11,224 bases of DNA from a virus. Lineage: Duplodnaviria > Heunggongvirae > Uroviricota > Caudoviricetes. The notes under the pieces were generated by a model, which saw only the letters and a list, made by a program, of their open reading frames with translations, searched no databases and had not been told where the DNA came from. Both the position numbers and the translations under genes were made by a program. This document shows, one piece after another, positions 1 through 11,224 of the stretch (position 1 is the first letter of the stretch; each line of letters begins with the position of its first letter). The DNA lies in IMG/VR virus record IMGVR_UViG_2541047682_000007; one strand, given 5' to 3'.

Positions 1-97
1 AGTCTTGAGTCTTGAGTCTTGAGTCTTGAGTCTTGAGTCTTGAGTCTTGAGTCTTGAGTCTTGAGTCTTGAGTCTTGAGTCTTGAGTCTTGAGTCTT
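1..97 (-). repeat. Tandem heptanucleotide repeat array (AGTCTTG as written; 5'-AAGACTC-3' on the coding strand), 13 complete copies plus a 6-nt partial copy abutting the window edge
   Basis: Direct reading: perfect 7-bp periodicity from position 1 to 97, ending in ...gagtcttaacat. On the minus strand this reads ATG TTA (AAGACTC)n, encoding RLKTQDS heptads. The array runs into the window edge, so the true copy number is unknown. Confidence 0.95.
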
Positions 98-102
98 AAC
101 AT
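1..102 (-). CDS. neuO: 5' end of polysialic acid O-acetyltransferase NeuO (partial; gene continues beyond window start)
   Basis: ATG at 102..100 (minus) followed by TTA and the AAGACTC repeats. This matches my recollection of the neuO contingency locus of K1 prophage CUS-3 (heptanucleotide VNTR in the 5' coding region). Position immediately downstream of a P22-like endosialidase tailspike fits. Identity rests on the repeat signature only, since the gene body is outside the window. Confidence 0.7.
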   Translation of the reverse strand, partial: MLRLKTQDSRLKTQDSRLKTQDSRLKTQDSRLKT

Positions 103-159
103 ATTAGTATCCTACGTTATTTTACCACTAGTTACTTTTCTTGTCATTAAAAAGCATTT

Positions 160-190
160 AAATTTTTATATTTAATTTCGTTGACGTCAA
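160..190 (-). promoter_or_regulatory. Candidate sigma70-like promoter region for neuO (TTGACG at 190..185 on minus strand inside palindrome TTGACGTCAA; A/T-rich -10 candidates TATAAA/AAAAAT around 170..162)
   Basis: AT-rich intergenic region between the tailspike stop (256) and neuO start (102). Hexamers found by eye; spacing is not ideal (14-17 bp depending on the -10 chosen). Low confidence. Confidence 0.2.
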
Positions 191-255
191 TGTTTTTTGC
201 CAATGTACTTACTTCTTTATGTGATCAGTTCATATTTTTGACGCCAACGAAACAT

Positions 256-3201
256 TTAGTGCTTCCCTTCTATTAAGTCTAACCTAGCTTTTATTCTTTC
301 TATTTCTCTGCGCTGCCATGCTGCCTCGATATAGAATAAGAGATCAGGTCTGACCCCCCATCTAGATCCTGCTGGCGTTATTTCAACGCGCTCAATGATG
401 TCTTCCATTACCATCACTGGATTATCATCCTCATCAACAATGATGCTCCCGTCATTATCAGTCAGCGGCATTTCCCTTTGGCCAGTAATGACGTCATCAT
501 ATACTGCGGGATAATCGTCATAGCAAAGAAAGGCATAGCGGCATGTTGTGCTTTCTTCTTCCATGAGTCCGTGAGAAATAAGAACATCACGAAGTTGCTG
601 CGCGATTACACCATGATGTATCCTCGCCCCTTCTTCCCCCTTTATAGCGACAGCGTTCAGCCATTTATAAGCGATATACCTGACGTCACCCCAGGCATCC
701 AGCAATGTTTCGTCAGGAGAGACCGGCTCTGTCTTTAATGTTCCGTCACTGGTAACCACAGGATTGGAGCCAAGATAAACTATCGAGAACCTGTTTCCCG
801 GACCACCAAGAGCATTTACATTATCAAGATAAGGTTTAACATCTCCGTTCTCAAAAAGATGTTCGAGTGCGTTATATACCGCGCGACGTGGAGTACTGCT
901 TCTGGAACCATGCAACGTTATCATTGCACCATCTGCTGAAGACGTTGTTTCACCGCCGCTAACGATTAATCTCTGAGCGGTAACATCATCAGACGGTACT
1001 TTCTTCGCAATAATGGCGTAATTACCCTCAAGTTTGACTTCCGCGCGAACTTGTCCTGATGTACCTGCATGGACAGTCAGTGACTGGACGGCAACATCAT
1101 CTGTGAAATCAACGGGTACAGGAACCGTCCTCACGCCTGACGTCGACATAAAAGTAGGAAGCGTTCTGTTAGGAGTGGCTCCGTAGACAAAATCCCTTGA
1201 AACAAATTCTTCCTGTTTAATTTTCACCCTGAAACAATACAAATCAGCCGGGTGACCATCGTGAACATAAGGATATTTTCTGTTGTTATCCCCTATGCTC
1301 CATGGGTTTAGAAAGTCTTCCCCACCGAAAATGTAGTACAGCCAGTTGTCTTTGATACAAACTGAACCAACACCAACCGCAGAGTTAACTATTCCGCCCT
1401 GATAAATCTGATCAGTAACATTAACCCACTCTACATTATCCAGACTCCACTCATTGACGTTAACTCTGGTCATAAATGTTCTTGGATAGTTTCCTGCATA
1501 ACGGTTATCAGGTTCTCCTCCTTCCCACTCACCAAATGCGCGCTCACTGCCAAAAATAATCAGCTCATCGCCAACTTTGGCAAAAGGAAGGTTTGAGTGA
1601 TGAACATTATTTGGGAAGCGAAGAGAATTCCATGATGTACCTAAATCAGAGCTTCTGTGCAATGAACTACCGGGTTGAGTACTTAATGTCCCCCTGGTCG
1701 TCAGATACAGAATGCCATCATAATATTTTACACATGGCTCAGATGCATTCGCCTCATATTCTGCAGGTATGCGTCTGCGAACAAAGCTACCAGGAGAACC
1801 GAAAGCATCAGAGAAATAGAGTATCCCAAGCTCGCGTGGACCAATATCACCATTATGGTAGCCAACAGCAAAACTGTTATCGCTAATCGTCGCAAAACTG
1901 TGAATCTCAGTAACAGGAGTGCTTCCGTCAACAAAAGAAGGAATAGTTCCAAGACTGGTTTTTCTCCATGGTGACGAGTGAAATGATGTACCAAAACTCC
2001 AGTATCTACCCTCGTTATTCTGATCCACATCCTGGGTATTTTGCGTCGTAACTGTAAAAGTATTTTTATCAATAACAGTAGTCACCGTCATATTCCCGGT
2101 AACACCTGTAACACCAGAGTTTGAGAAGTTGACAAAATCACCAGCAAATAATCCGTGATCAGTAATGCGAATATAAGCGACTTGCTGATTTGCTGCTTTC
2201 GTTATACCACCATAAACGCGAAGGCTGCGACTCATTGGGCGATCCCACAACTCTGCAACCTGCAGTTTATTTCCGCTCACGGTCCGCGTCTCAATTACAG
2301 CAAAAAGGCGATTTCTGACAACCCCCATACTCATGCAGTGATAGTTAACTGTGGGATAGTTTTCATGTAAATCTGTAAGCCATTCCGGCGTTGTCCAGGT
2401 CTTCCCGTCATCTCCTGAGCGAACCCATGCAACATGGAGGTTATTTACACCATGGCGGTCTCCAGCCATAAAAGGCGCATAGATGACATTGTCATATACA
2501 AACGTTTTATCCTGCGTCCAGGCGTTGTACCACGGTGTATCTGTAATTTTAAATAACTCTCCCTGGATAAAATCTTCAGAAACATAAAAAAGAGGCTGAC
2601 CCGGTATTCTCTCAAATAAAAAACGAGCATTTTTAAATCGACTGACATCTGGAAGAGTTGATACTTTAAAAGTAAGCCCTCGCCCATCTATCTTTTCACC
2701 ACCTGTTGCAACAGAAAGTAATTCTGATAGAGCTGATGTATCATCATGAACACCATCACCAATAGCCCCCCAACCTCTTACATCATAACTGTCTCTCCAT
2801 CTTGCTATCTGAAGTTTTGGGTATTTATTCGCTCCATCTGGGTCTTCTAATTGCTGCCGTAGTTGATCAGGATCATACTTCAGCACATTCTGGAAATAGA
2901 ACTGCTGTACGCCATACGCATCGTACACAGCCATAGAATGGCCTTGCACAGTTACGAACTTGGCAATCCGTCCGTTATATACAGGGTAACCAGCAGCGTT
3001 AATGATGATTGGTTGCGAAACAGGAACGTGAGAGCCGTCTTCGTTCTCTACATAAACCTGAATCCGGTTTTCAGGATTTACCGGGTCAGTGTCAATTTTA
3101 CCGATATAAATTTTGCCATTGGCTACGGCTTTAAAAGAACGCGCCATAGTGAAGAGTTGCGAAGGCATCGATACAATCACATTGGCTGTAATGTCTGTCA
3201 T
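256..3201 (-). CDS. Tailspike protein: P22-type head-binding N-terminal domain fused to an endo-N-acetylneuraminidase (endosialidase) domain with a C-terminal intramolecular chaperone (S74-type) domain
   Basis: 981-aa ORF. N-terminus [13 protein letters not shown]...[21 protein letters not shown]...[15 protein letters not shown]...LKYDPDQ closely parallels the P22 gp9 head-binding domain as I remember it. Central region carries sialidase Asp-box motifs ([16 protein letters not shown]). The C-terminal ~150 aa resemble the auto-cleaving chaperone domain of K1-phage endosialidases. RBS GGAG 8-9 nt upstream of ATG at 3201. Confidence 0.9.
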
Positions 3202-3259
3202 TTAATTTGCTCCAGATGCAAAGAATCGCCGCAGCATGGCCACGGTGAATTTTGGGCAT

Positions 3260-3282
3260 AAAAAAACCCAGCCGAAGCTGGG
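3260..3282 (-). terminator. Rho-independent terminator between ant and the tailspike gene
   Basis: On the minus strand: stem CCCAGC, loop TTCG, stem GCTGGG, followed by TTTTTTT (plus-strand 3267-3282 cccagccgaagctggg preceded by an A-run). Confidence 0.6.
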
Positions 3283-3301
3283 TCGTTGCGTTGGTTATCT
3301 G

Positions 3302-4204
3302 TCAGTAATTATGTACTGAAGGAGGTAATTCTTTATTCTTAAGTCTCATCCATGCGGAAAGATTCGTTGGTCCGTCTGGCTCATTGATATCAACATCTCG
3401 TGTGTGATTGATTAAAACGTCTCTCGCCATATCGATAATACGGGAGAACTCATAACCGCAGTCATGACATCTGCCGGAATAGTTCGATTGAATTTGTTTT
3501 AGCGCCGGATACAGTTCGCGGAATAATGCCTGTGAGCGGTTGGCATAATCCCATAGCCATACAAGGCTGTTTGCTTCTTTTGCAGAAAGCTCGTTGGTTT
3601 TCTTCTCTTGTTTGCCGATGAACTCACCTTCAAGCACTACCCTGTGGATGTACTCTACTGCTTGTGGTATCTGAGATGCATCAAGCTCTTCAATACTTTC
3701 CACATTGAAACGCTGATGAATCATTGCATAAGCTTCTGGGTACATTAGATGCTTTTTGCTGACTAGCATATTTACAGCATCACGAAGCGGAGTCCTGTCA
3801 TCAACAGATGTTTTCTTCCGTGCATTTGCTGCCTCTCCCTTTGTCCAGTAGTCATGCAGCACAGTAAAGCATTCTTCCTGGTACTGAATCAGTTTATCGC
3901 GGATGTCAGCACGAACTTTCTCAGGGTTGATGCTGAACAGCCATCCATTTAACTTCTTCAAAGGAAGGCAGAGTAGCTTACGAAGCTTACCATCAGCGGC
4001 AACCATGTTCATATGAACACAGTTGAATTTGCTAATCTGCTTCATGAGTTTTGTTTGCTGCGTTGACCAGCTCATTCCGAGGTTTTCAACGATTGGCTTC
4101 ATCGCAACATATGCAACTCCGGCAGCCATGGCGGTGATAATTTGCTGACCGTTGAATGGCACGTAAGAGGTGTTCACTGCTTCTAAAATTGCTATACTAT
4201 TCAT
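3302..4204 (-). CDS. ant: Antirepressor Ant (P22 immI-type, 300 aa)
   Basis: ORF-track ORF 3302..4270 contains an internal ATG at 4204 preceded by GGAG with a 10-nt spacer. From that start the product is 300 aa, the length I recall for P22 Ant, beginning [21 protein letters not shown]. The longer 322-aa reading begins with GTG at 4270 and lacks a good RBS. Position between arc and the tailspike matches P22 immI. Confidence 0.8.
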
Positions 4205-4285
4205 GTTGGTTTTTCTCCACGGATTTACCGACAACCGAAGCCCTGACTGTTCCAGCAGTTGGGGCTTCACTGTTTTGATTTCTTT
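4205..4285 (+). ncRNA. Candidate Sar-like antisense RNA opposite the ant ribosome-binding site and start
   Basis: Plus-strand extended -10 element TGcTATACT (4190-4198) would put a start near 4205, directly opposite the ant start codon. Plus-strand hairpin GAAGCCC..ACTG-ttccag-CAGT..GGGCTTC (4237-4268) is followed by a T-rich tract ACTGTTTTGATTTCTTT (4269-4285). This is analogous to the P22 sar RNA. Inference only. Confidence 0.3.
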
Positions 4286-4436
4286 GCCGCATCAAGCATC
4301 ACTTCTGAAAACGTGCGCTTGCCACTGAATACTCTTTCTCTTCTCAATTTTTCGTTCGTGCCAAATGATTCGCCATGAACAAAATTTGGTCTTAAAATGG
4401 TAATCGCAATCTCTTTGACTACTGCATCCAAGCGAA

Positions 4437-4589
4437 TCACACCGTTACCCCCTCTCTCTTCAGGCTGTCTATCAGGCGCTTGATAACCTCTGAGTTAAAC
4501 GACCTGCACTCTTCCTTTGCCCTGCTACCGATAGCATCCTTTAACGACTGCGGCATCCTTACCAAAATCTTACTTATTTCTTTCTCCAT
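4437..4589 (-). CDS. arc: Arc repressor (ribbon-helix-helix, 50 aa)
   Basis: ATG at 4589 preceded by GGAGG with a 5-nt spacer. Product MEKEISKILVRMPQSLKDAIGSRAKEECRSFNSEVIKRLIDSLKREGVTV shows the P22 Arc pattern (MP-F/Q..., GRS-NSE). The longer track ORF begins with TTG. Divergent from mnt, upstream of ant. Confidence 0.8.
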   Translation of the reverse strand: MEKEISKILVRMPQSLKDAIGSRAKEECRSFNSEVIKRLIDSLKREGVTV

Positions 4590-4703
4590 GTTACCCTCCA
4601 CGCAAACAACTCTTTTCGAATACAAAAGATAGCAAAGTGAGTATATCTAGTCAAAATTTTTTTGCATACACTTTGCTATCAAATTGAATACCAAAGGTGT
4701 TAT
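4590..4703. promoter_or_regulatory. Divergent Pant/Pmnt control region containing a 13-bp perfect inverted repeat (aGATAGCAAAGTG 4627-4639 / CACTTTGCTATCt 4669-4681; 29-bp spacer)
   Basis: Intergenic region between divergently oriented arc and mnt. The inverted repeat was read directly. Minus-strand TTGACT (4654..4649) with TATCTT (4631..4626) 17 bp downstream is a plausible Pant. Exact hexamers are uncertain. Confidence 0.5.
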
Positions 4704-4952
4704 ATGGCAAAGGGTGTGTCAATTTCTCCAACTACGGTAAGAATCCCTGAATCTTTACGCGAGGCTCTTGCTGTCAGAGCATCAAAAAATGGTCGCTCTG
4801 TTAACTCCGAGATCGTCATGATTTTGCAAGCCGCGATTGATGAAGATAGGTCGCCAAAGTCAGTTGAGTCATTTGCTCAGCAAGAAGCTGATAAATTCAA
4901 AGAGGCGCTACTTGAGACGCTAAAGACCATGTATGCTAAGGATGAAAAATAA
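4704..4952 (+). CDS. mnt: Mnt repressor (ribbon-helix-helix, 82 aa)
   Basis: ATG at 4704 with AAGGTG 4 nt upstream. Product MAKGVSISPTTVRIPESLREALAVRASKNGRSVNSEI...ALLETLKTMYAKDEK parallels P22 Mnt (82-83 aa; ANGRSMNSE...TLKDLYKK). The track ORF is 5'-extended by an implausible upstream start. Confidence 0.85.
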   Translation: MAKGVSISPTTVRIPESLREALAVRASKNGRSVNSEIVMILQAAIDEDRSPKSVESFAQQEADKFKEALLETLKTMYAKDEK

Positions 4953-5488
4953 TGCTGCACACAATTCATTTCTTATGCCCTGTTAACACTGCCACTGTTG
5001 GGCAACTTCAGAACCACTGTCTCACCGCATTATCTCAAGGCGCAACTGAATTAAATATCCATATATCAAGTCAGGGAGGGGAAACTGCTGCTGGCTTTAC
5101 TGCGTATAACTTTCTTAAGTCACTCCCTGTTACCGTTAGAACTCACAACATAAGCAATGTTGAATCCATAGCTAATATCGTTTTCCTGGCTGGCTCAGAA
5201 CGTTTCGCAAACCCATTATCAAGATTCCTGTTACATCCTCTATTATGGTGCTTTGCCTCCCCAGCCGCCGACCATGCCAGATTGAGAGAGTACGGGAAAT
5301 GCCTCGATAACGATCTTGATCGCTTCGTTGAGACGTTCAATATCGACATCGGAACCCATATTAGGTGGGCATCCCTGATAGCAGACTCGACCATTTTGGA
5401 TGCTAACAAGGCTCTTGAGCATGGCATAATTAATTCCATAAAAACTGCAAGGCTGGCATCCAATCAGGCAAACTGGTGGGTTGTTTGA
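4952..5488 (+). CDS. ClpP-like (peptidase S14 / ClpP-crotonase fold) serine peptidase homolog, 178 aa, translationally coupled to mnt
   Basis: Start ATG overlaps the mnt stop (TAATG at 4950-4954). By-eye alignment to E. coli ClpP: ISSQGG vs INSPGG; NVESIANIVFLAG vs GQAASMGAFLLTAG (catalytic Ser aligned); RFANPLSRFLLHP vs RFCLPNSRVMIHQP (catalytic His aligned); LDNDLDRF vs ERDTERDRF (catalytic Asp aligned). Followed by a terminator hairpin. Confidence 0.7.
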   Translation: MLHTIHFLCPVNTATVGQLQNHCLTALSQGATELNIHISSQGGETAAGFTAYNFLKSLPVTVRTHNISNVESIANIVFLAGSERFANPLSRFLLHPLLWCFASPAADHARLREYGKCLDNDLDRFVETFNIDIGTHIRWASLIADSTILDANKALEHGIINSIKTARLASNQANWWVV

Positions 5489-5513
5489 TGGGTAAATCAT
5501 GATTACTCCTTAT

Positions 5514-5538
5514 AAAAAACCCACCTGACGGTGGGTTT
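5514..5538 (+). terminator. Hairpin terminator downstream of the ClpP-like gene (possibly bidirectional)
   Basis: aaaaaaCCCACC-tgac-GGTGGGttt. The GC stem is flanked by an A-run upstream and T's downstream, so on the minus strand it reads as stem plus TTTTTT. The plus-strand T-tract is short (3 T). Confidence 0.5.
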
Positions 5539-5767
5539 AGTCAAACATAGTGTTTCTAAAGTCTCTCGCATACCCTGCTAACACTCTCATTCTATTATGA
5601 TTGTTAGCAGACATGTGAGCTACAGGATGAAAAAGAGCAATCAATGAATACCTGTTCTCATCAAAAAGATTTTGTGCATAAACGAGAGCGGTATTTGAAG
5701 TGGTTTACTGAATTTGGCCACCTGAACAGAGGTGATATGCTCACCTCAGAACAACACAGGTGCCATA

Positions 5768-6915
<1,148 letters not shown>

Positions 6916-7112
6916 CTCGGTGGCCAGTTTTTGTTGACCACTTCAATGCAACAGTTCGCTATTGCAGGGGCGGCATCGGTTCGCCCTTTCAACCCGATTT
7001 TATCGGTACAGCATTCACGAAAAAACATTTTAACCGGAGCAGACTTTAAACAACCAAGAATGAAAAGCTTGCTCGAAAAGCTTTGGGATATTTTGAAACA
7101 ACAAGGCCGTCC

Positions 7113-7271
7113 ATGAGTTTTACGGATAACTGGTCAGACGAAGAATTCATTCGTCAGATAAAAGAATTAATCGGTAACGAAGGAGATATTCATGTCACTT
7201 GCAACCACAGTGAAGGAGAGCAAGTTACAGAGACGCATGTACACGCAGAAAGCTCTCTGGTATCGCCATAA
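7113..7271 (+). CDS. Hypothetical small protein (52 aa) in the early-left operon upstream of erf
   Basis: ATG at 7113 with AAGG about 7 nt upstream; acidic product MSFTDNWSDEEFIRQIKELIGNEGD.... Overlaps an alternative 56-codon ORF (7192..7362) in another frame, so both cannot be fully correct. Confidence 0.3.
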   Translation: MSFTDNWSDEEFIRQIKELIGNEGDIHVTCNHSEGEQVTETHVHAESSLVSP

Positions 7272-7362
7272 TGGTGACCGCGAAGGAATGCGGGTATGCC
7301 TTAATTTGTCCCGAGTCGAAGTATTAAATCAGCGTTATTTCCTTGGGCCGTGTCCATTCTGA
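7192..7362 (+). CDS. Hypothetical small basic protein (56 aa) immediately upstream of erf (position of arf/kil in P22)
   Basis: ATG at 7192 preceded by AGGAG with a 6-nt spacer. Product MSLATTVKESKLQRRMYTQKALWYRHNGDREGMRVCLNLSRVEVLNQRYFLGPCPF. Stop is 10 nt before the erf start. Below the ORF-track length cutoff, found by manual translation. Confidence 0.3.
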   Translation: MSLATTVKESKLQRRMYTQKALWYRHNGDREGMRVCLNLSRVEVLNQRYFLGPCPF

Positions 7363-7372
7363 GAGCAATCAT

Positions 7373-7978
7373 ATGAGCAAAGAATTTTACGCAAGACTGG
7401 CAGCTATTCAGGAGAATCTGAACGCGCCAAAGAATCAGTACAACTCATTCGGCAAATATAAATACAGAAGCTGCGAAGATATTCTTGAAGGCGTTAAGCC
7501 GTTACTGAACGGTCTGTTTTTATCAATCAGCGATGAAGTTGTGTTGATTGGTGATCGGTATTACGTGAAAGCCACGGCAACTATTACCGATGGCGAAAAC
7601 AGTCATACGGCAACCGCTCTTGCACGAGAGGAAGAAAGCAAGAAAGGAATGGATTCTGCACAAGTTACGGGAGCTACAAGCTCTTATGCACGCAAGTATT
7701 GCCTCAATGGTTTGTTCGGCATTGATGATGCGAAAGATGCAGATACAGACGAGCATAAACATCAGCAGAACGCAGCAGCAAAGCAATCAAAACCATCACT
7801 TACACCTGAACAGGTTCTAAAAGCATTCACTGACGCAGCAATGCAGAAAAACACCGTAGAAGAGCTTAAACAGGCGTTCGCCAAAGCGTGGAAGATGCTC
7901 GAAGGGACGCCGGAGCAGCACAAAGCGCAGGACGTTTACAACATCAGACGAGACGAATTAGAAGGGGCAACTGCTTAA
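7373..7978 (+). CDS. erf: Erf (essential recombination function) single-strand annealing recombinase
   Basis: Product from ATG 7373: MSKEFYARLAAIQENLNAPKNQYNSFGKYKYRSCEDILEGVKPLLNGLFLSISDEVVLIGDRYYVKATATITDGENSH... is near-identical in its N-terminal ~130 aa to my recollection of P22 Erf. The track ORF is extended upstream from a TTG. Confidence 0.9.
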   Translation: MSKEFYARLAAIQENLNAPKNQYNSFGKYKYRSCEDILEGVKPLLNGLFLSISDEVVLIGDRYYVKATATITDGENSHTATALAREEESKKGMDSAQVTGATSSYARKYCLNGLFGIDDAKDADTDEHKHQQNAAAKQSKPSLTPEQVLKAFTDAAMQKNTVEELKQAFAKAWKMLEGTPEQHKAQDVYNIRRDELEGATA

Positions 7979-8361
7979 TGGCACATTCGATTACAGTAAG
8001 ACTAAACAAACCCGCAAGAGAGTTTCAGGGCGGGGAAAATATCGGATTCAACATCCGTGCTGGCGTTCAGTATTACGATCGCCAGACAAAAAAGAAAGAA
8101 TGGACAAACTACAGCGCCGTTGTATTTGCCAAGCCGGGAGCGCAAGCGGATTACTATCGTAGCGTTCTGGTTGAAGGAGGCATTGTAGAAATTACCGGAG
8201 AAAACATCAGGGTTGATGTTTATCAGGGGCAAAATGGTCAATCAATCACTCTTGAATTACTGAATGCAAAGATTGGATTTGCAACTTCAGGAAACAGCCA
8301 ACAGCAGCAAAGTAGCAATCATCAAAATAATCCTGAATACGACGATTCCATCCCATTCTGA
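7978..8361 (+). CDS. ssb: Phage single-stranded DNA-binding protein (short SSB, 127 aa)
   Basis: ATG overlaps the erf stop (TAATG at 7976-7980). OB-fold-like core (KEWTNYSAVVFAKPGAQADYYRSVLVEGGIVEITGE, compare E. coli SSB [33 protein letters not shown]). Gln-rich linker and canonical acidic C-terminal tail ...PEYDDSIPF (E. coli SSB ends DFDDDIPF). Confidence 0.85.
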   Translation: MAHSITVRLNKPAREFQGGENIGFNIRAGVQYYDRQTKKKEWTNYSAVVFAKPGAQADYYRSVLVEGGIVEITGENIRVDVYQGQNGQSITLELLNAKIGFATSGNSQQQQSSNHQNNPEYDDSIPF

Positions 8362-8384
8362 TTTAGAAAAATAAGGATTTAATT

Positions 8385-8681
8385 ATGCCAGCGCCTTTGT
8401 ATGGTGCGGATGACCCGCGCCGCTGTTCCGGCAATTCCGTATCGGAGGTGCTGGATAAATTCAGAAAAAACTACGATCGAATAATGTCTCTACCGCAGGA
8501 AACGAAAGAGGAAAAGGAATTTCGCCACTGTATATGGCTTGCAGAGAAAGAAGAACGCGAGCGAATTTACCAGACATCAATCCGACCATTCCGCAAAGCC
8601 ACATATACCCACTTCCCTGAATATATCGACCCGCGCCTGCGTAATTACCGCTCACGCTATGGCGCTATCAGTAATGACTGA
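8385..8681 (+). CDS. Hypothetical protein (98 aa), Ea-region
   Basis: ATG at 8385 with AAGGA 7 nt upstream. Same strand and operon context as erf-ssb. No recognisable motif. Confidence 0.55.
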   Translation: MPAPLYGADDPRRCSGNSVSEVLDKFRKNYDRIMSLPQETKEEKEFRHCIWLAEKEERERIYQTSIRPFRKATYTHFPEYIDPRLRNYRSRYGAISND

Positions 8682-8775
8682 GGAATTTACCATGAGAGGA
8701 CTTGCTTAAGAGAAAGAGTTTCGGTTCTGTTAATGACAACAAATATCTGAATGCGATGTGGCGGAGTGGGAAGAA

Positions 8776-9294
8776 ATGAAACAAATGTCACTAATTGAGA
8801 TGGATGGTTTTCTGAAAGGTAAATGCATCCCAAGTGATTTAAAGGTTAACGAAACAAACGCTGAATACCTTGTCCGTAAGTTCGGTGAACTTGAATCAAA
8901 ACTGGAAACGGCGTTGCGGGAGTGTAGTTCTGCTGGAATCACGATTGATAACCTTGAGGCTAAATGCGCGAAGATGGCTGCTGAAAATACCTCACTTAAG
9001 CAATCTGAGAAGGAATTTAATGACTTTTGTCGTGAGGAGTTTAGCGAATGGGAAGATGATGTTACTGAAACCCCAGCCACCGATGCTTTTCTGGCTGAAG
9101 TGCGGGCGCAGGGGGTGGATGCTGCTATAGAAGCTGCAAAAAATCTGGTGGCCCAAGAATATGAGTATAAGGATTTCAAAGCGGCGCAGAGTGATTGCTG
9201 TATGCACCCTGGTTCAGACCTGGTAGGGAAGGTTGAAATGACTGAGTGGTTAGTTGACTTTGCTGCCCAGCTTCGCAAAGGAGGCAACCAGTGA
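8776..9294 (+). CDS. Ead/Ea22-like acidic protein (about 172 aa; start uncertain, GTG 8758 or ATG 8776)
   Basis: Long acidic ORF in the Ea region, with GGAG 9 nt upstream of ATG 8776. The family assignment is from general resemblance to lambdoid Ea22-type proteins and is tentative. Confidence 0.55.
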   Translation: MKQMSLIEMDGFLKGKCIPSDLKVNETNAEYLVRKFGELESKLETALRECSSAGITIDNLEAKCAKMAAENTSLKQSEKEFNDFCREEFSEWEDDVTETPATDAFLAEVRAQGVDAAIEAAKNLVAQEYEYKDFKAAQSDCCMHPGSDLVGKVEMTEWLVDFAAQLRKGGNQ

Positions 9295-9590
9295 CTGTAT
9301 GTCTTATTGATAAACGTCGACGTGGGCAACAAATACCATCTGTTGAAATGCCGAATCACACATGGTTTTGCGTACTTGATATCGATGGTATGGATACGTT
9401 GGTTGACACTCGTCATTACTGCGATACCGCAACAGCTACTCCGGCGAAAGCAAAGAAAATGGCTGCTCTGATAGAAAACTGGACTCCACCTGATGGTTGG
9501 TGCAATGGGAATGATCGAGATTGGCACGAAAAAATGAAGGGCTATATCTGCGATTTTTTACGTAAATGCAACGGCTTCAGGGGGATGTGA
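9291..9590 (+). CDS. Hypothetical Cys-containing protein (99 aa), GTG start overlapping upstream stop (GTGA)
   Basis: Strong RBS AAAGGAGG 6 nt upstream of GTG 9291. Start overlaps the stop of the preceding ORF, suggesting translational coupling. Confidence 0.5.
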   Translation: MTVCLIDKRRRGQQIPSVEMPNHTWFCVLDIDGMDTLVDTRHYCDTATATPAKAKKMAALIENWTPPDGWCNGNDRDWHEKMKGYICDFLRKCNGFRGM

Positions 9591-9591
9591 T

Positions 9592-10164
9592 ATGACCAAA
9601 ATTAACTATCAGGCACTGCGTGAGGCGGCAGAACGTGCAATTCCGGCAATGGAACGCCTGTTAATGTTGCCAGTTGATGATGATTTGTTAAGTGAACAGG
9701 AACTTAAGGATTACGGTGTGGATATTGATGCGCTCAACGCCTTCAAATTTCTGACCGGACCAGAAACCGTGCTGGCGCTGCTGGATGAACGGGAAAGAAA
9801 CCAGCAATACATCAAACGCCGCGACCAGGAGAACGAGGAAATTGCGCTAACGGTAGGGAAGCTGCGCGTTGAGCTGGAAGCTGCAGAGAAGCGCATTGCA
9901 GAACTGGAAGCCGAACCTGTAAGCCAAACTTACAAGTTGAACGAGCTGTCGGGCAACTATCCGGTAACTCCGGATGGTTGGATAAGCTGTAGTGAGCGAA
10001 TGCCCGCTCAAGATGATTGGATTTTAATTTATTCAAAGCACGGCGAGTATATGGCAGGACAGGTACAAGGGGAATACGTGGAGTTGAGCGACGGCACTTT
10101 ATCGTGGTTAGGGAACGCCTTGTACTGGATGCCTCTACCGGAACCGCCGCAGGAGGTTAATTGA
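9592..10164 (+). CDS. DUF551-type / Ea22-like prophage protein (190 aa) with central coiled-coil
   Basis: N-terminal MTKINYQALREAAERA... and C-terminal TPDGWISCSERMPAQDDWILIY...LYWMPLPEPP resemble the DUF551 C-terminal domain common in lambdoid early-left regions. Coiled-coil segment KLRVELEAAEKRIAELEAE. ATG 2 nt after the upstream stop. Confidence 0.7.
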   Translation: MTKINYQALREAAERAIPAMERLLMLPVDDDLLSEQELKDYGVDIDALNAFKFLTGPETVLALLDERERNQQYIKRRDQENEEIALTVGKLRVELEAAEKRIAELEAEPVSQTYKLNELSGNYPVTPDGWISCSERMPAQDDWILIYSKHGEYMAGQVQGEYVELSDGTLSWLGNALYWMPLPEPPQEVN

Positions 10165-10358
10165 TGGTCTCCTTCGCGAAATATACGATTATTGACTGGA
10201 TAGCATTCATTCAGGTTTTGCTCATCTGGTTTTATATGGCTTACAGGAGTGGACAGTGGATTGTCAGTGTAGCCTGTAGCAATGGATGGCGTTGGTGGAA
10301 CCGAAAGAATAAAAAAAGCGCTGGCCTTGGCTTCGTTTTACGAAGCATTCAATCTTAA
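10164..10358 (+). CDS. Small hydrophobic (predicted membrane) protein, 64 aa
   Basis: ATG at 10164 overlaps the upstream stop (TGATG) and is preceded by AGGAGG with a 7-nt spacer. Hydrophobic helix IIDWIAFIQVLLIWFYMAY followed by a basic W/R/K-rich tail. Confidence 0.45.
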   Translation: MVSFAKYTIIDWIAFIQVLLIWFYMAYRSGQWIVSVACSNGWRWWNRKNKKSAGLGFVLRSIQS

Positions 10359-10441
10359 CAGTCTTCAGCCTGGTTCTGTCGTTGTAGTCACCACTCAAAG
10401 CGGCATGACGATACAAATTCACAAGCCAAAGGAGGAAGGTC

Positions 10442-10726
10442 GTGGCTAACCTGCAACTTGCCGTTAAAGGTGAATACTTCGATGCCATGATTCGCGGAGA
10501 GAAAACGGAAGAGTATCGCCTGTGTAATGACTACTGGAATAAGCGAATTATGTTCCGCGAGTATGACCGCCTGATTATCACAAAGGGATATCCGAAGCGC
10601 GACGATTCCAGCCGCAGAATTGACGTCCCGTATGACGGATATGAAATCAAGACAATCACACATCCGCACTTCGGCGATAAACCGGTAAAGGTGTTCGCTA
10701 TAAAGGTGAATATCGACAATGAATGA
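10442..10726 (+). CDS. ASCH/PUA-like domain protein (94 aa), GTG start
   Basis: GTG at 10442 preceded by AAGGAGGAAGG. Motif ...GEKTEEYR... resembles the ASCH-domain signature (GxKTxExR) seen in small phage proteins. Assignment is tentative. Confidence 0.55.
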   Translation: MANLQLAVKGEYFDAMIRGEKTEEYRLCNDYWNKRIMFREYDRLIITKGYPKRDDSSRRIDVPYDGYEIKTITHPHFGDKPVKVFAIKVNIDNE

Positions 10727-10798
10727 TAATCCTCGCACTCGCGGGGATTTCTTTTATCTGAACTCGCTACGGCGGGTTTTGTTTTATGGAGATGATAA

Positions 10799-10966
10799 AT
10801 GCACTTCCGAGTCACAGGTGAATGGAATGGAGAGCCATTCAACAGAGTTATCGAAGCAGAGAACATCAACGACTGCTATGACCACTGGATGCTGTGGGCG
10901 CAGATAGCACATGCAGACGTAACTAATATTCGAATTGAAGAACTGAAAGAACACCAAGCCGCCTGA
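10799..10966 (+). CDS. Hypothetical small protein (55 aa)
   Basis: ATG at 10799 with GGAG 7 nt upstream. Product MHFRVTGEWNGEPFNRVIEAENINDCYDHWMLWAQIAHADVTNIRIEELKEHQAA. Stop codon lies in the loop of a terminator hairpin. Below the ORF-track cutoff. Preferred over the overlapping track ORF 10719..10907. Confidence 0.4.
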   Translation: MHFRVTGEWNGEPFNRVIEAENINDCYDHWMLWAQIAHADVTNIRIEELKEHQAA

Positions 10967-10978
10967 TGGCGGTTTTTT
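10956..10978 (+). terminator. Rho-independent terminator at the end of the Ea gene cluster
   Basis: CCGCC-tgat-GGCGG stem-loop (10959-10972) followed by TTTTTTATT. Confidence 0.6.
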
Positions 10979-11023
10979 ATTGCCTGATTTGCAGGTTCGA
11001 TTCCCTATTCGGAGATAGCACTC

Positions 11024-11224
11024 ATGCAACACGAACTACAACCTGATTCACTGGTTGATTTGAAATTCATCATGGCCGATACTGGCTTCGGTAAAACCTT
11101 CATCTATGACCGGATTAAGTCCGGCGACCTGCCAAAAGCCAAAGTTATCCACGGGCGAGCAAGATGGTTATATCGTGACCATTGTGAATTCAAAAATAAG
11201 CTCTTAAGCCGCGCCAATGGGTAA
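11024..11224 (+). CDS. xis: Excisionase / AlpA-family DNA-binding protein (Xis), 66 aa
   Basis: GGAG 9 nt upstream of ATG 11024. Product carries an AlpA/Xis-like pattern (FIMADTGFGKTFIYDRIKSGDLPKAKVIHGRARWLYRD..., compare the typical ...TGLSRSTIYRLIKEGKFPKP...GRSVRW...). Lies at the distal end of the early-left operon, where xis precedes int in P22-like prophages. Confidence 0.65.
   Translation: MQHELQPDSLVDLKFIMADTGFGKTFIYDRIKSGDLPKAKVIHGRARWLYRDHCEFKNKLLSRANG

Follow-up and report, generated by a model that had tools for sequence, protein, structure and literature searches.

The window, by which we mean the whole stretch of 11,224 nt analysed here, is 100% identical to scaffold KE698839.1 (L024, GCA_000456085.1). 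It contains the 5' end of neuO, an endosialidase tailspike gene, an immI module of the P22 type, a ClpP-like accessory gene, a toxin gene fragment, a copy of ISEc52 and an early-left arm ending in torI. In L024 the element is bounded by host genes on the intS/argW side, beyond neuO, and by dsdC-dsdX past torI. Insertion between argW and dsdC, intS lying at one end and torI at the other, is the layout of the CUS-3-like prophages and is the same in S88 and CUS-3. A neuO gene with AAGACTC repeats adjoining the tailspike gene, the other mark of this group, was also found. The exact configuration of the window was observed in none of 5,426 complete E. coli genomes; it was located instead through an exact-protein look-up of the tailspike.

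The gene neuO, encoding polysialic acid O-acetyltransferase, had been described as part of this stretch. Its start is indeed present (1..102, minus strand, ATG at 102-100), but only these first 102 nt lie inside the window. After the ATG come AAGACTC heptanucleotide repeats, which continue past the window edge; such repeats are annotated in CUS-3 as well. The source scaffold has an N-gap within the repeats, 1 nt before the window start, and the rest of neuO is found in L024. A sigma-70 promoter-like site (119..147, minus strand; ATGACA-17-TAAAAT with an extended -10), a consensus match only, with 10 of 12 positions agreeing, is located 17 nt upstream of the ATG. All relatives examined have kept neuO. 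Among 8,659 K1 genomes of a published set (J Bacteriol 2026), 43.5% carry it. Since NeuO protects against K1 phage (PMC9659370; PMC13001214), the gene may be a cargo that benefits the host by protecting it against K1 phages.

The endosialidase tailspike gene (256..3201, minus strand) is an intact, uninterrupted ORF of 981 codons with zero internal stops, just as claimed before. S88 and N62, whose prophages are full-length, carry the gene with the identical nucleotide sequence. The Pfam domains of the product are Head_binding (residues 1-113), End_N_terminal (146-212), End_beta_propel (213-662, E 1e-233), End_beta_barrel (324-406), End_tail_spike (663-817) and Peptidase_S74 (818-878). This is the endoN-family architecture, a beta-propeller with an inserted beta-barrel, a stalk and a C-terminal S74 chaperone, with all Pfam domains at full length. 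Residues 145-817 align with the solved endosialidase endoNF (1v0e/3gvl) with 1047 bits, and E488, R503, R554 and S818 are aligned with endoNF E581, R596, R647 and S911. We take E581, R596 and R647 to be the catalytic Glu/Arg/Arg of endoNF and S911 to be its chaperone-release serine; these roles are said to go back to Stummeyer et al. 2005. Judging by the alignment, the putative equivalents of the catalytic triple and of the chaperone-release Ser are conserved in the window tailspike.

The CUS-3 record (CP000711) cites direct assay evidence of endosialidase for the CUS-3 tailspike allele, from which the window protein differs by six residues, all within the head-binding domain. The two main alleles, the S88 type and the RS218 type, have no difference beyond the first 361 nt; correspondingly, all 29 nucleotide differences between the window gene and the RS218 allele fall there. 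The dN/dS ratio between the S88 and RS218 alleles, 0.08, was considered as a test of selection. It was rejected: all 29 differences sit at this module boundary, the catalytic part shows none, and the population gives such a test no power. Any such signal would reflect the life of the phage, not the state of the remnant.

The protein is a virion tailspike. Its N-terminus matches a P22-like virion head-binding domain (Pfam) and is predicted to be such a domain rather than an export signal. The late promoter, the Q antiterminator and the lysis genes (holin, endolysin) are deleted from the remnant as compared to S88. A consensus scan found no promoter-like site between the upstream terminator-like hairpin and the tailspike start codon. 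The loss of the late promoter and the Q region, together with the terminator-like site upstream, suggests that the tailspike gene is a silent passenger beside neuO.

The P22-type immI module follows the tailspike gene in the order terminator, ant, sar RNA, arc, Pant, mnt, where promoters and terminator are matches to a consensus only. An intrinsic-terminator-like hairpin with a T-run (3265..3284, minus strand) separates ant from the tailspike gene, in what we take to be the position of the P22 ant terminator. The antirepressor gene ant (3302..4204, minus strand; 300 aa, Pfam P22_AR_N and P22_AR_C) is annotated as Ant, WP_001350929.1, in S88 and PE144. The antisense RNA sar (4205..4271, plus strand; Rfam RF00262, 83.9 bits, full length) spans the translation-initiation region of ant. 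The arc repressor gene (4437..4589, minus strand; 50 aa, Pfam Arc, E 5e-12) and an mnt-like gene of the Arc repressor family (4704..4952, plus strand; 82 aa, Pfam Arc, E 1e-10) are divergent, and their intergenic region contains a Pant-like promoter (4626..4654, minus strand), again a match to the consensus only. Pfam and Rfam thus confirm that the ant/arc/mnt module is complete; mnt falls outside the interval 256-4589 in which the preliminary description had placed it. Gene order, divergent promoters, sar and the terminator before the tailspike gene are shared with immI of P22 (mnt-arc-sar-ant, then gene 9). The element differs by an additional 57-aa ORF, situated between arc and ant (4267..4440, minus strand), which is a hypothetical protein in the annotation of relatives and has no Pfam match. 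The repressor expected to be the target of Ant (cI/C2) has been deleted from the element. In sister remnants whose right junction with ISEc52 is identical, mnt, arc and the N-terminus of ant are already gone; hence the immI module is not maintained in relatives either.

Next to mnt are the ClpP-like accessory gene (4952..5488, plus strand; 178 aa, Pfam CLP_protease) and what the deletion has left of a yafO-family toxin gene, its 3' part (5537..5695, minus strand; Pfam YafO_toxin positions 52-101 only); S88 has this gene in full. They are followed by ISEc52, a 1,250-bp element of the IS3 family (5696..6945, plus strand) with terminal inverted repeats TGAAGTGG... and ORFs matching HTH_Tnp_1 and rve; copies 100% identical to it bear the annotation ISEc52 (RefSeq). 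The surviving early-left arm (6946..11224, plus strand) consists of a 56-aa ORF, erf (7373-7978, plus strand), anti-RecBCD and ea-type genes, and torI/xis (11024-11224, plus strand).

Comparison with E. coli S88, where the prophage is full-length, confirms the deletion that had been suspected. Positions 1-5695 of the window correspond to positions 3540-9234 of the S88 locus (100%), and positions 6946-11224 to 37130-41407, where a single 1-bp indel, at 9205, is the one difference and no base is mismatched; the 9,974 bp that remain thus contain zero substitutions. S88 positions 9235-37129 are missing and ISEc52 stands in their place, so that 27,895 bp of CUS-3/S88-type prophage have been exchanged for the insertion element. 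The lost stretch runs from the N-terminus of yafO through ejection, head, portal, terminase, lysis, Q, nin and replication genes to cI/cro/N, that is, it comprises every virion, lysis, replication and immC gene. The reported absence of virion genes is likewise confirmed for the element, which in L024 ends at host genes on both sides. Without this gene set the element is a defective remnant of the family and not a phage. No target-site duplication was observed at 5696-6945, the flanks being att and atg, which fits a product of deletion or recombination, not a simple insertion.

The most likely explanation, to which we assign a probability of about 0.85, is recent IS-mediated decay of a prophage, the window being approximately the whole of a defective CUS-3-like (P22-type) element in a K1 ExPEC strain of an ST95-like clone. 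ISEc52 would have taken out 27.9 kb from the middle, through an adjacent deletion or because two copies of it recombined. The left end (neuO-tailspike-immI-clpP) and the right end (erf to torI) would have been spared only as they were outside the deleted interval. The deletion is probably too recent for point mutations to have built up, and the tailspike ORF and immI would look perfect for that reason. Further IS-driven erosion toward neuO can already be seen in sister isolates.

The preliminary description had offered recent deletion or selection as reasons for the intact tailspike ORF. The former agrees with the 0 substitutions in 9,974 bp relative to S88, the latter does not agree with the truncated and IS-split tailspikes of relatives; indeed, decay of the tailspike in closely related isolates was the outcome that had been named there as evidence against selection. 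Zero substitutions put the 95% upper bound at 3e-4 per site, which for the tailspike gene means no more than 0.9 substitutions. The share of possible substitutions in this gene that create a stop is 4.07%, and one indel per 9,974 bp implies approximately 0.15 indels in the gene in a single lineage. The probability that the tailspike is intact under neutrality is then about 0.84. Since the remnant is nearly unmutated relative to S88, an intact ORF is what neutrality predicts. It is ordinary and is not a sign of a new function.

Across 8.6 kb of host flank, the loci of close relatives are all 0-3 SNPs apart; the clone is young by this measure, and also by the two main tailspike alleles, which agree beyond the first 361 nt. 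The tailspike genes of relatives are truncated to 203, 204, 402, 520 or 1,416 nt, with deletion end points (in window coordinates) at 458 in N63, 459 in E19019, 658 in E12053, 775 in Eco_23-2678 and 1671 in N58, and neuO is retained in all five. In FY26, SF-088 and M15 the gene is split by insertion elements (IS3-family, ISEc52, IS903B) and neuO is again kept. Less than 80% of the tailspike gene is left in 13 of the 194 genomes carrying it. The tailspike is dispensable. A nested series of deletions has the right IS junction 6945|6946 in common, the left ends being 5695 in the window, 3890 in L021, and 3510 in CEA212U and L019. There are approximately seven break-point sites in the 2.9 kb of the tailspike gene and approximately seven in the 2.5 kb of immI/clpP, a rough comparison, as the two sets were ascertained differently.

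Among some 25-30 contigs reached by the exact-protein look-up, all with the identical intact tailspike, about nine had no virion genes within 10 kb, and such remnants are not rare in that set; the look-up finds intact copies only, and this count cannot show preferential retention. Four tailspike-positive genomes taken from an evenly spaced list all contain complete virion modules (4/4). Remnants are a minority among complete genomes, the sample of four being too small for a rate. A 20-kb query from S88, which covered at least 80% in 40 genomes, was dropped as a count of remnants, since mosaic variants score low: UTI89, such a variant, scores 67% despite holding virion genes.

The locus shows, in a clean and datable form, how insertion elements erode a prophage in a young pathogenic clone: the cargo gene neuO persists as the phage genes are lost piecemeal. 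It offers little new biology and one caution: in clones so young, an intact long ORF is uninformative about selection.

Decay as the explanation has to be weighed against the possibility that the tailspike DNA is kept for neuO, which could be expressed by read-through from the Pant/tailspike region or depend on a regulatory sequence within the tailspike gene. No terminator-like site was found on the minus strand from the tailspike stop (256) to the neuO ATG (102), no neuO-positive remnant examined has less than about 203 nt left at the 3' end of the tailspike gene, and the two different configurations of N63 and E19019 stop at one point, 458/459. However, neuO remains where no more than 203-520 nt of the tailspike gene are left, and thus at most the last 200 nt could matter. 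In three of the five tailspike-truncated loci it is also in frame, the number of repeats being divisible by 3. Mnt would hold Pant off, and mapping in PMC9659370 places the DsdC-dependent control at neuO itself. Given its own promoter-like site, neuO would not need read-through, and we consider this explanation unlikely. A mis-join in the draft scaffold, with the virion genes really there, is the least credible alternative. The N-gap just ahead of the window start could raise such a suspicion, but the ISEc52 junctions are continuous sequence without gaps and the same contig is carried by two samples. The artefact was rejected as the identical right junction recurs in CEA212U and CP164910.1, which are complete genomes, and also in GCA_964044855.1.

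It is highly improbable, too, that the tailspike has been retained as a working protein, conditionally expressed in virion-less CUS-3 remnants and preferentially spared by IS erosion. It could be selected as a soluble endosialidase remodelling the host K1 capsule, or as a spare part taken up through the conserved head-binding domain by a co-resident or superinfecting P22-like phage. The protein would then trim the polysialic acid of its own cell or give incoming P22-like phages K1 specificity, a rare co-option of a capsule depolymerase by a host. The intact ORF with its presumed catalytic residues and chaperone-cleavage serine, the P22-like head-binding domain, and the identical protein in several independent remnants are compatible with this idea. 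The evidence points the other way: intactness is the neutral expectation at zero substitutions from S88, and the gene is truncated or IS-split in at least seven configurations on near-identical clonal backgrounds. Moreover, the N-terminus resembles a virion head-binding domain rather than an export signal, the element has lost holin, endolysin, late promoter and Q, and a terminator-like hairpin stands directly upstream with no promoter-like site before the start codon.

That CUS-3-like prophages decay and keep neuO is already known. Connolly et al. (PNAS 2022; PMC9659370) described these phages as "prone to decay", with CE10 and SCU-175 as examples; there, as here, the prophage has lost content between neuO and dsdC. 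The neuO-dsdC distance shrinks to about 8 kb in their shortest elements as compared to approximately 11.5 kb in the window type; this ISEc52 deletion, the nested series and the state of the tailspike are not part of that study. CUS-3 itself (E. coli K1 RS218, CP000711; Lederbergvirus, P22-like) and its S88-type variant occupy the same site, argW/intS ... torI/dsdC. CUS-3 shares neuO with AAGACTC repeats, the endosialidase tailspike, Ant and the early-left arm, with 99.9% identity over window positions 7113-11004, whereas the window lacks 27.9 kb and has ISEc52 at the scar. The region from ant to the ejection genes is of the S88 type (clpP-like, yafO), not of the RS218 type.

The tailspike aligns end to end with endoNF of phage K1F (PDB 1V0E, 3GVL, 3GW6) in the beta-propeller, beta-barrel, stalk and C-terminal intramolecular chaperone. 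As its N-terminal adaptor the window protein has a head-binding domain of the P22 gp9 type (Pfam), and the K1F endosialidase presumably has a different one. Finally, the cryptic prophage KplE1/CPS-53 of E. coli K-12 uses the same attachment site, argW, and has intS and torI at opposite ends. It is reportedly an IS-eroded P22-like remnant that keeps surface-modification cargo next to int (Panis et al. 2010 are said to have described it so). Its cargo is gtrABS instead of neuO, and unlike the window it has no intact tailspike.

Megablast assigned the window to the P22-like prophages of the CUS-3 family, which are located at argW. Its positions 1-5695 correspond to positions 3540-9234 of the prophage locus of E. 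coli S88, which carries a full-length CUS-3-type prophage, with zero differences, and positions 6946-11224 correspond to 37130-41407 with zero substitutions and one 1-bp indel at window 9205. Between these two arms, 27,895 bp of the S88 prophage are absent. A yafO-type toxin gene has lost its 5' two-thirds to the deletion. The genes for ejection proteins, head completion, coat, scaffold, portal and terminase are missing, as are those for lysis and replication, Q, the nin region, cII/cro/cI, and the N region. The deletion site is occupied by a 1,250-bp ISEc52 (5696-6945) with intact inverted repeats and without a target-site duplication. This is the pattern left when an IS deletes the DNA next to it or when two copies recombine, and the scar is of the standard type for IS3-family deletions. 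The recent deletion proposed in the preliminary description is supported.

None of the 5,426 complete E. coli genomes searched has the two junctions together. The source was found by an exact-protein look-up: scaffold KE698839.1 of GCA_000456085.1 is identical (100%) to the window across all 11,224 bases. There the element is bordered by neuO-intS-yfdC-mlaA-fadL on one side and by dsdC-dsdX on the other, and no virion gene is present in the whole remnant of approximately 13.6 kb. In this draft scaffold, a 151-nt run of N (13203-13353) interrupts the heptanucleotide repeats of neuO, and the window opens one base past it. The element has the site, neuO and the tailspike of the CUS-3 family but is not a complete phage, and is thus a defective member.

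The indel at 9205 (S88 locus ~39390), the sole difference from S88 in 9,974 bp, touches a 178-aa YfdS-family ORF (8758-9294) that is open in the window and annotated as frameshifted in S88. The right end of ISEc52 (6945/6946; 19719/19720 in the CEA212U locus) abuts exactly the ATG of a 56-aa ORF, whose Shine-Dalgarno box (AAGGAG in S88) is replaced in the window by the IS end TTGTTGACCACTTCA. Between mnt and the ejection genes (window 4952-5695; S88 locus 8491-10626), the S88 type has a ClpP-like gene, a YafO-family toxin, a 188-aa ORF and a 109-aa ORF, which may form an accessory or defence cassette, whereas the prophage type of RS218, the host of CUS-3, has a different gene set at this position. 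The YafO-family gene in the window is reduced to its last 53 codons.

The tailspike gene (256-3201, minus strand) is an ORF of 981 codons with no internal stops. The protein consists of a P22-type head-binding domain, an endosialidase N-terminal extension, a beta-propeller with an inserted beta-barrel, a stalk, and an S74 intramolecular chaperone. Residues 145-817 align with the solved K1F endosialidase (1v0e/3gvl, ~1047 bits), and the tail aligns with the chaperone domain structure 3gw6. E488, R503, R554 and S818 are conserved and are the counterparts of E581, R596, R647 and S911 of endoNF, the first three of which we take to be catalytic and the last to be the release serine. The product is predicted to be an ordinary enzyme of the endoN family. 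The S88-type and RS218/CUS-3-type alleles have 29 differences, all in the first 361 nt (window 2841-3201, the head-binding domain), and the other 2,585 nt are identical, which is a sharp mosaic boundary. This boundary coincides with the differing ant/immI modules of the two prophage types.

The immI module is of the standard P22 type. A terminator-like hairpin (3284-3265, minus strand) lies between ant (3302-4204) and the tailspike start. Further upstream are the sar antisense RNA (4205-4271, plus strand; Rfam RF00262, 83.9 bits, full length), a 57-aa ORF, arc (4437-4589), a promoter-like site resembling Pant, and the divergent mnt-like gene (4704-4952). As sar is situated opposite the ant ribosome-binding region, it sets the start of ant at the ATG at 4204, not the GTG at 4270 given by the ORF finder. 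The earlier claim of an intact tailspike, immI genes and neuO without virion genes is confirmed by the ORF, the Pfam domains and the KE698839.1 remnant. However, the interval 256-4589 assigned to this module covers the tailspike, ant and arc, with mnt outside it, and the window has no more of neuO than its first 102 nt (1-102, AAGACTC repeats), the rest of the gene lying beyond it.

The intact tailspike ORF is not evidence of selection. The surviving 9,974 bp have zero substitutions compared to the full-length prophage, which sets a 95% upper bound on divergence of ~3e-4 per site, or no more than 0.9 substitutions across the 2,946 bp of the gene. Stop-creating changes are 4.07% of possible substitutions in this ORF, and one indel in 9,974 bp corresponds to ~0.15 indels expected in the gene on one lineage. 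The chance of a still-intact tailspike without any constraint is ~0.84. In 21 of the 22 other loci fetched, the flanking host DNA varies by 0-3 SNPs per 8.6 kb, and the carriers as a whole are a young clone. An age estimate of ~250 years for the ST95 K1 genotype is cited in PMC13001214. In a carrier population of such youth, IS activity is the sole visible mutational process.

Endosialidase sequence was found in 194 of 5,426 complete genomes, 13 of which keep less than 80% of it. The five truncated loci inspected have IS3-family cuts at window positions 458 (N63), 459 (E19019), 658 (E12053), 775 (Eco_23-2678) and 1671 (N58), and all five retain neuO. Three more split genes were observed among 60 rows sampled evenly across the ranking, in FY26 (IS3-family), SF-088 (ISEc52) and M15 (IS903B). 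The suggestion that selection or a new function maintains the tailspike is not supported and, by the refuting criterion given in the preliminary description, is contradicted, as the gene is cut or split in the same clone. There are ~7 distinct break points in 2.9 kb of the tailspike and ~7 in 2.5 kb of immI/clpP, near-equal numbers per kb; the two sets were ascertained differently and the comparison is rough, but it gives no hint of sparing of the tailspike. Complete virion modules were present in all four tailspike-positive genomes taken from an evenly spaced list of carriers, and thus the window-type remnant is a minority state.

The right ISEc52 junction of the window (6945/6946) recurs exactly with left ends at 3890 (GCA_964044855.1) and 3510 (CEA212U, CP164910.1), so that mnt, arc and the N-terminal part of ant are lost. 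With this identical junction and deeper left deletions, the three strains form a nested series of one-sided erosion. A similar deletion with other end points was found in 19AR1321, and additional IS events of independent origin lie within these few kilobases in PE144, AHB22, E10 and KE701088.

In P22-like phages, transcription of the tailspike gene starts at the late promoter and passes through immI under Q/gp23 antitermination, with a weak contribution from Pant. The element lacks the late promoter region and Q, and by analogy with P22, Pant should stay repressed since Mnt is present. No promoter-like site was found between the ant-tailspike hairpin and the tailspike start. According to its Pfam domains, the protein starts with a virion head-binding domain rather than an export signal, and since the lysis genes are lost, a secreted capsule-trimming enzyme would have no route to the capsule. 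The gene for the cI-type repressor, presumably the target of Ant, is deleted as well. Domestication of the endosialidase, or its use by helper phages as a spare part, is very improbable. The simplest reading is that neuO would be the selected cargo, and the tailspike and immI would be neutral passengers between neuO and advancing IS-mediated deletions.

A promoter-like site was found 17 nt upstream of the neuO ATG. Repeat numbers among relatives vary from 8 to 60, and all three phases are present. The gene is reportedly protective against K1 phages (PMC9659370; PMC13001214). Decay of CUS-3-like prophages with neuO kept, the neuO-dsdC region being down to ~8 kb, is stated explicitly in PMC9659370, and the finding is already known in kind. 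The present analysis adds the exact deletion map, identifies the assembly from which the window comes, describes a nested series that shares one ISEc52 junction, and shows that tailspike loss is tolerated in the same clone.

In N58 (10417-11730 of its locus), the IS3-family deletion passes from the middle of the tailspike through dsdCXA into emrY, removing the right arm, dsdC, dsdX, dsdA and the 3' end of emrY; neuO stays in frame with 18 repeats. The neighbouring host regulator DsdC reportedly controls neuO and is needed for its expression (PMC9659370). Thus neuO may be poorly expressed in N58, a CSF isolate, unless there is a second dsdC copy. One nucleotide, window 458/459 (6459 in the N63 locus, 9203 in that of E19019), is the tailspike break in two differing remnants: E19019 keeps ant and has its IS on the plus strand, and N63 has a minus-strand IS and a deletion extending to the cIII/kil region. 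The shared break may mark a hot spot for insertion or go back to one ancestral insertion with later rearrangements. The resulting stub is the shortest tailspike remnant seen beside an intact neuO.

A second type of endosialidase gene (E. coli genomes H123-H131, e.g. MS8345 and FDAARGOS_1302 at 2269323) matches only window 288-2680 (99.1-99.6%). It has other N- and C-termini, occupies another chromosomal site without neuO, and is found in ~15% of carriers. The tail fibre of phage vB_EcoP_ZX5 is similar to it, and some strains contain both types.
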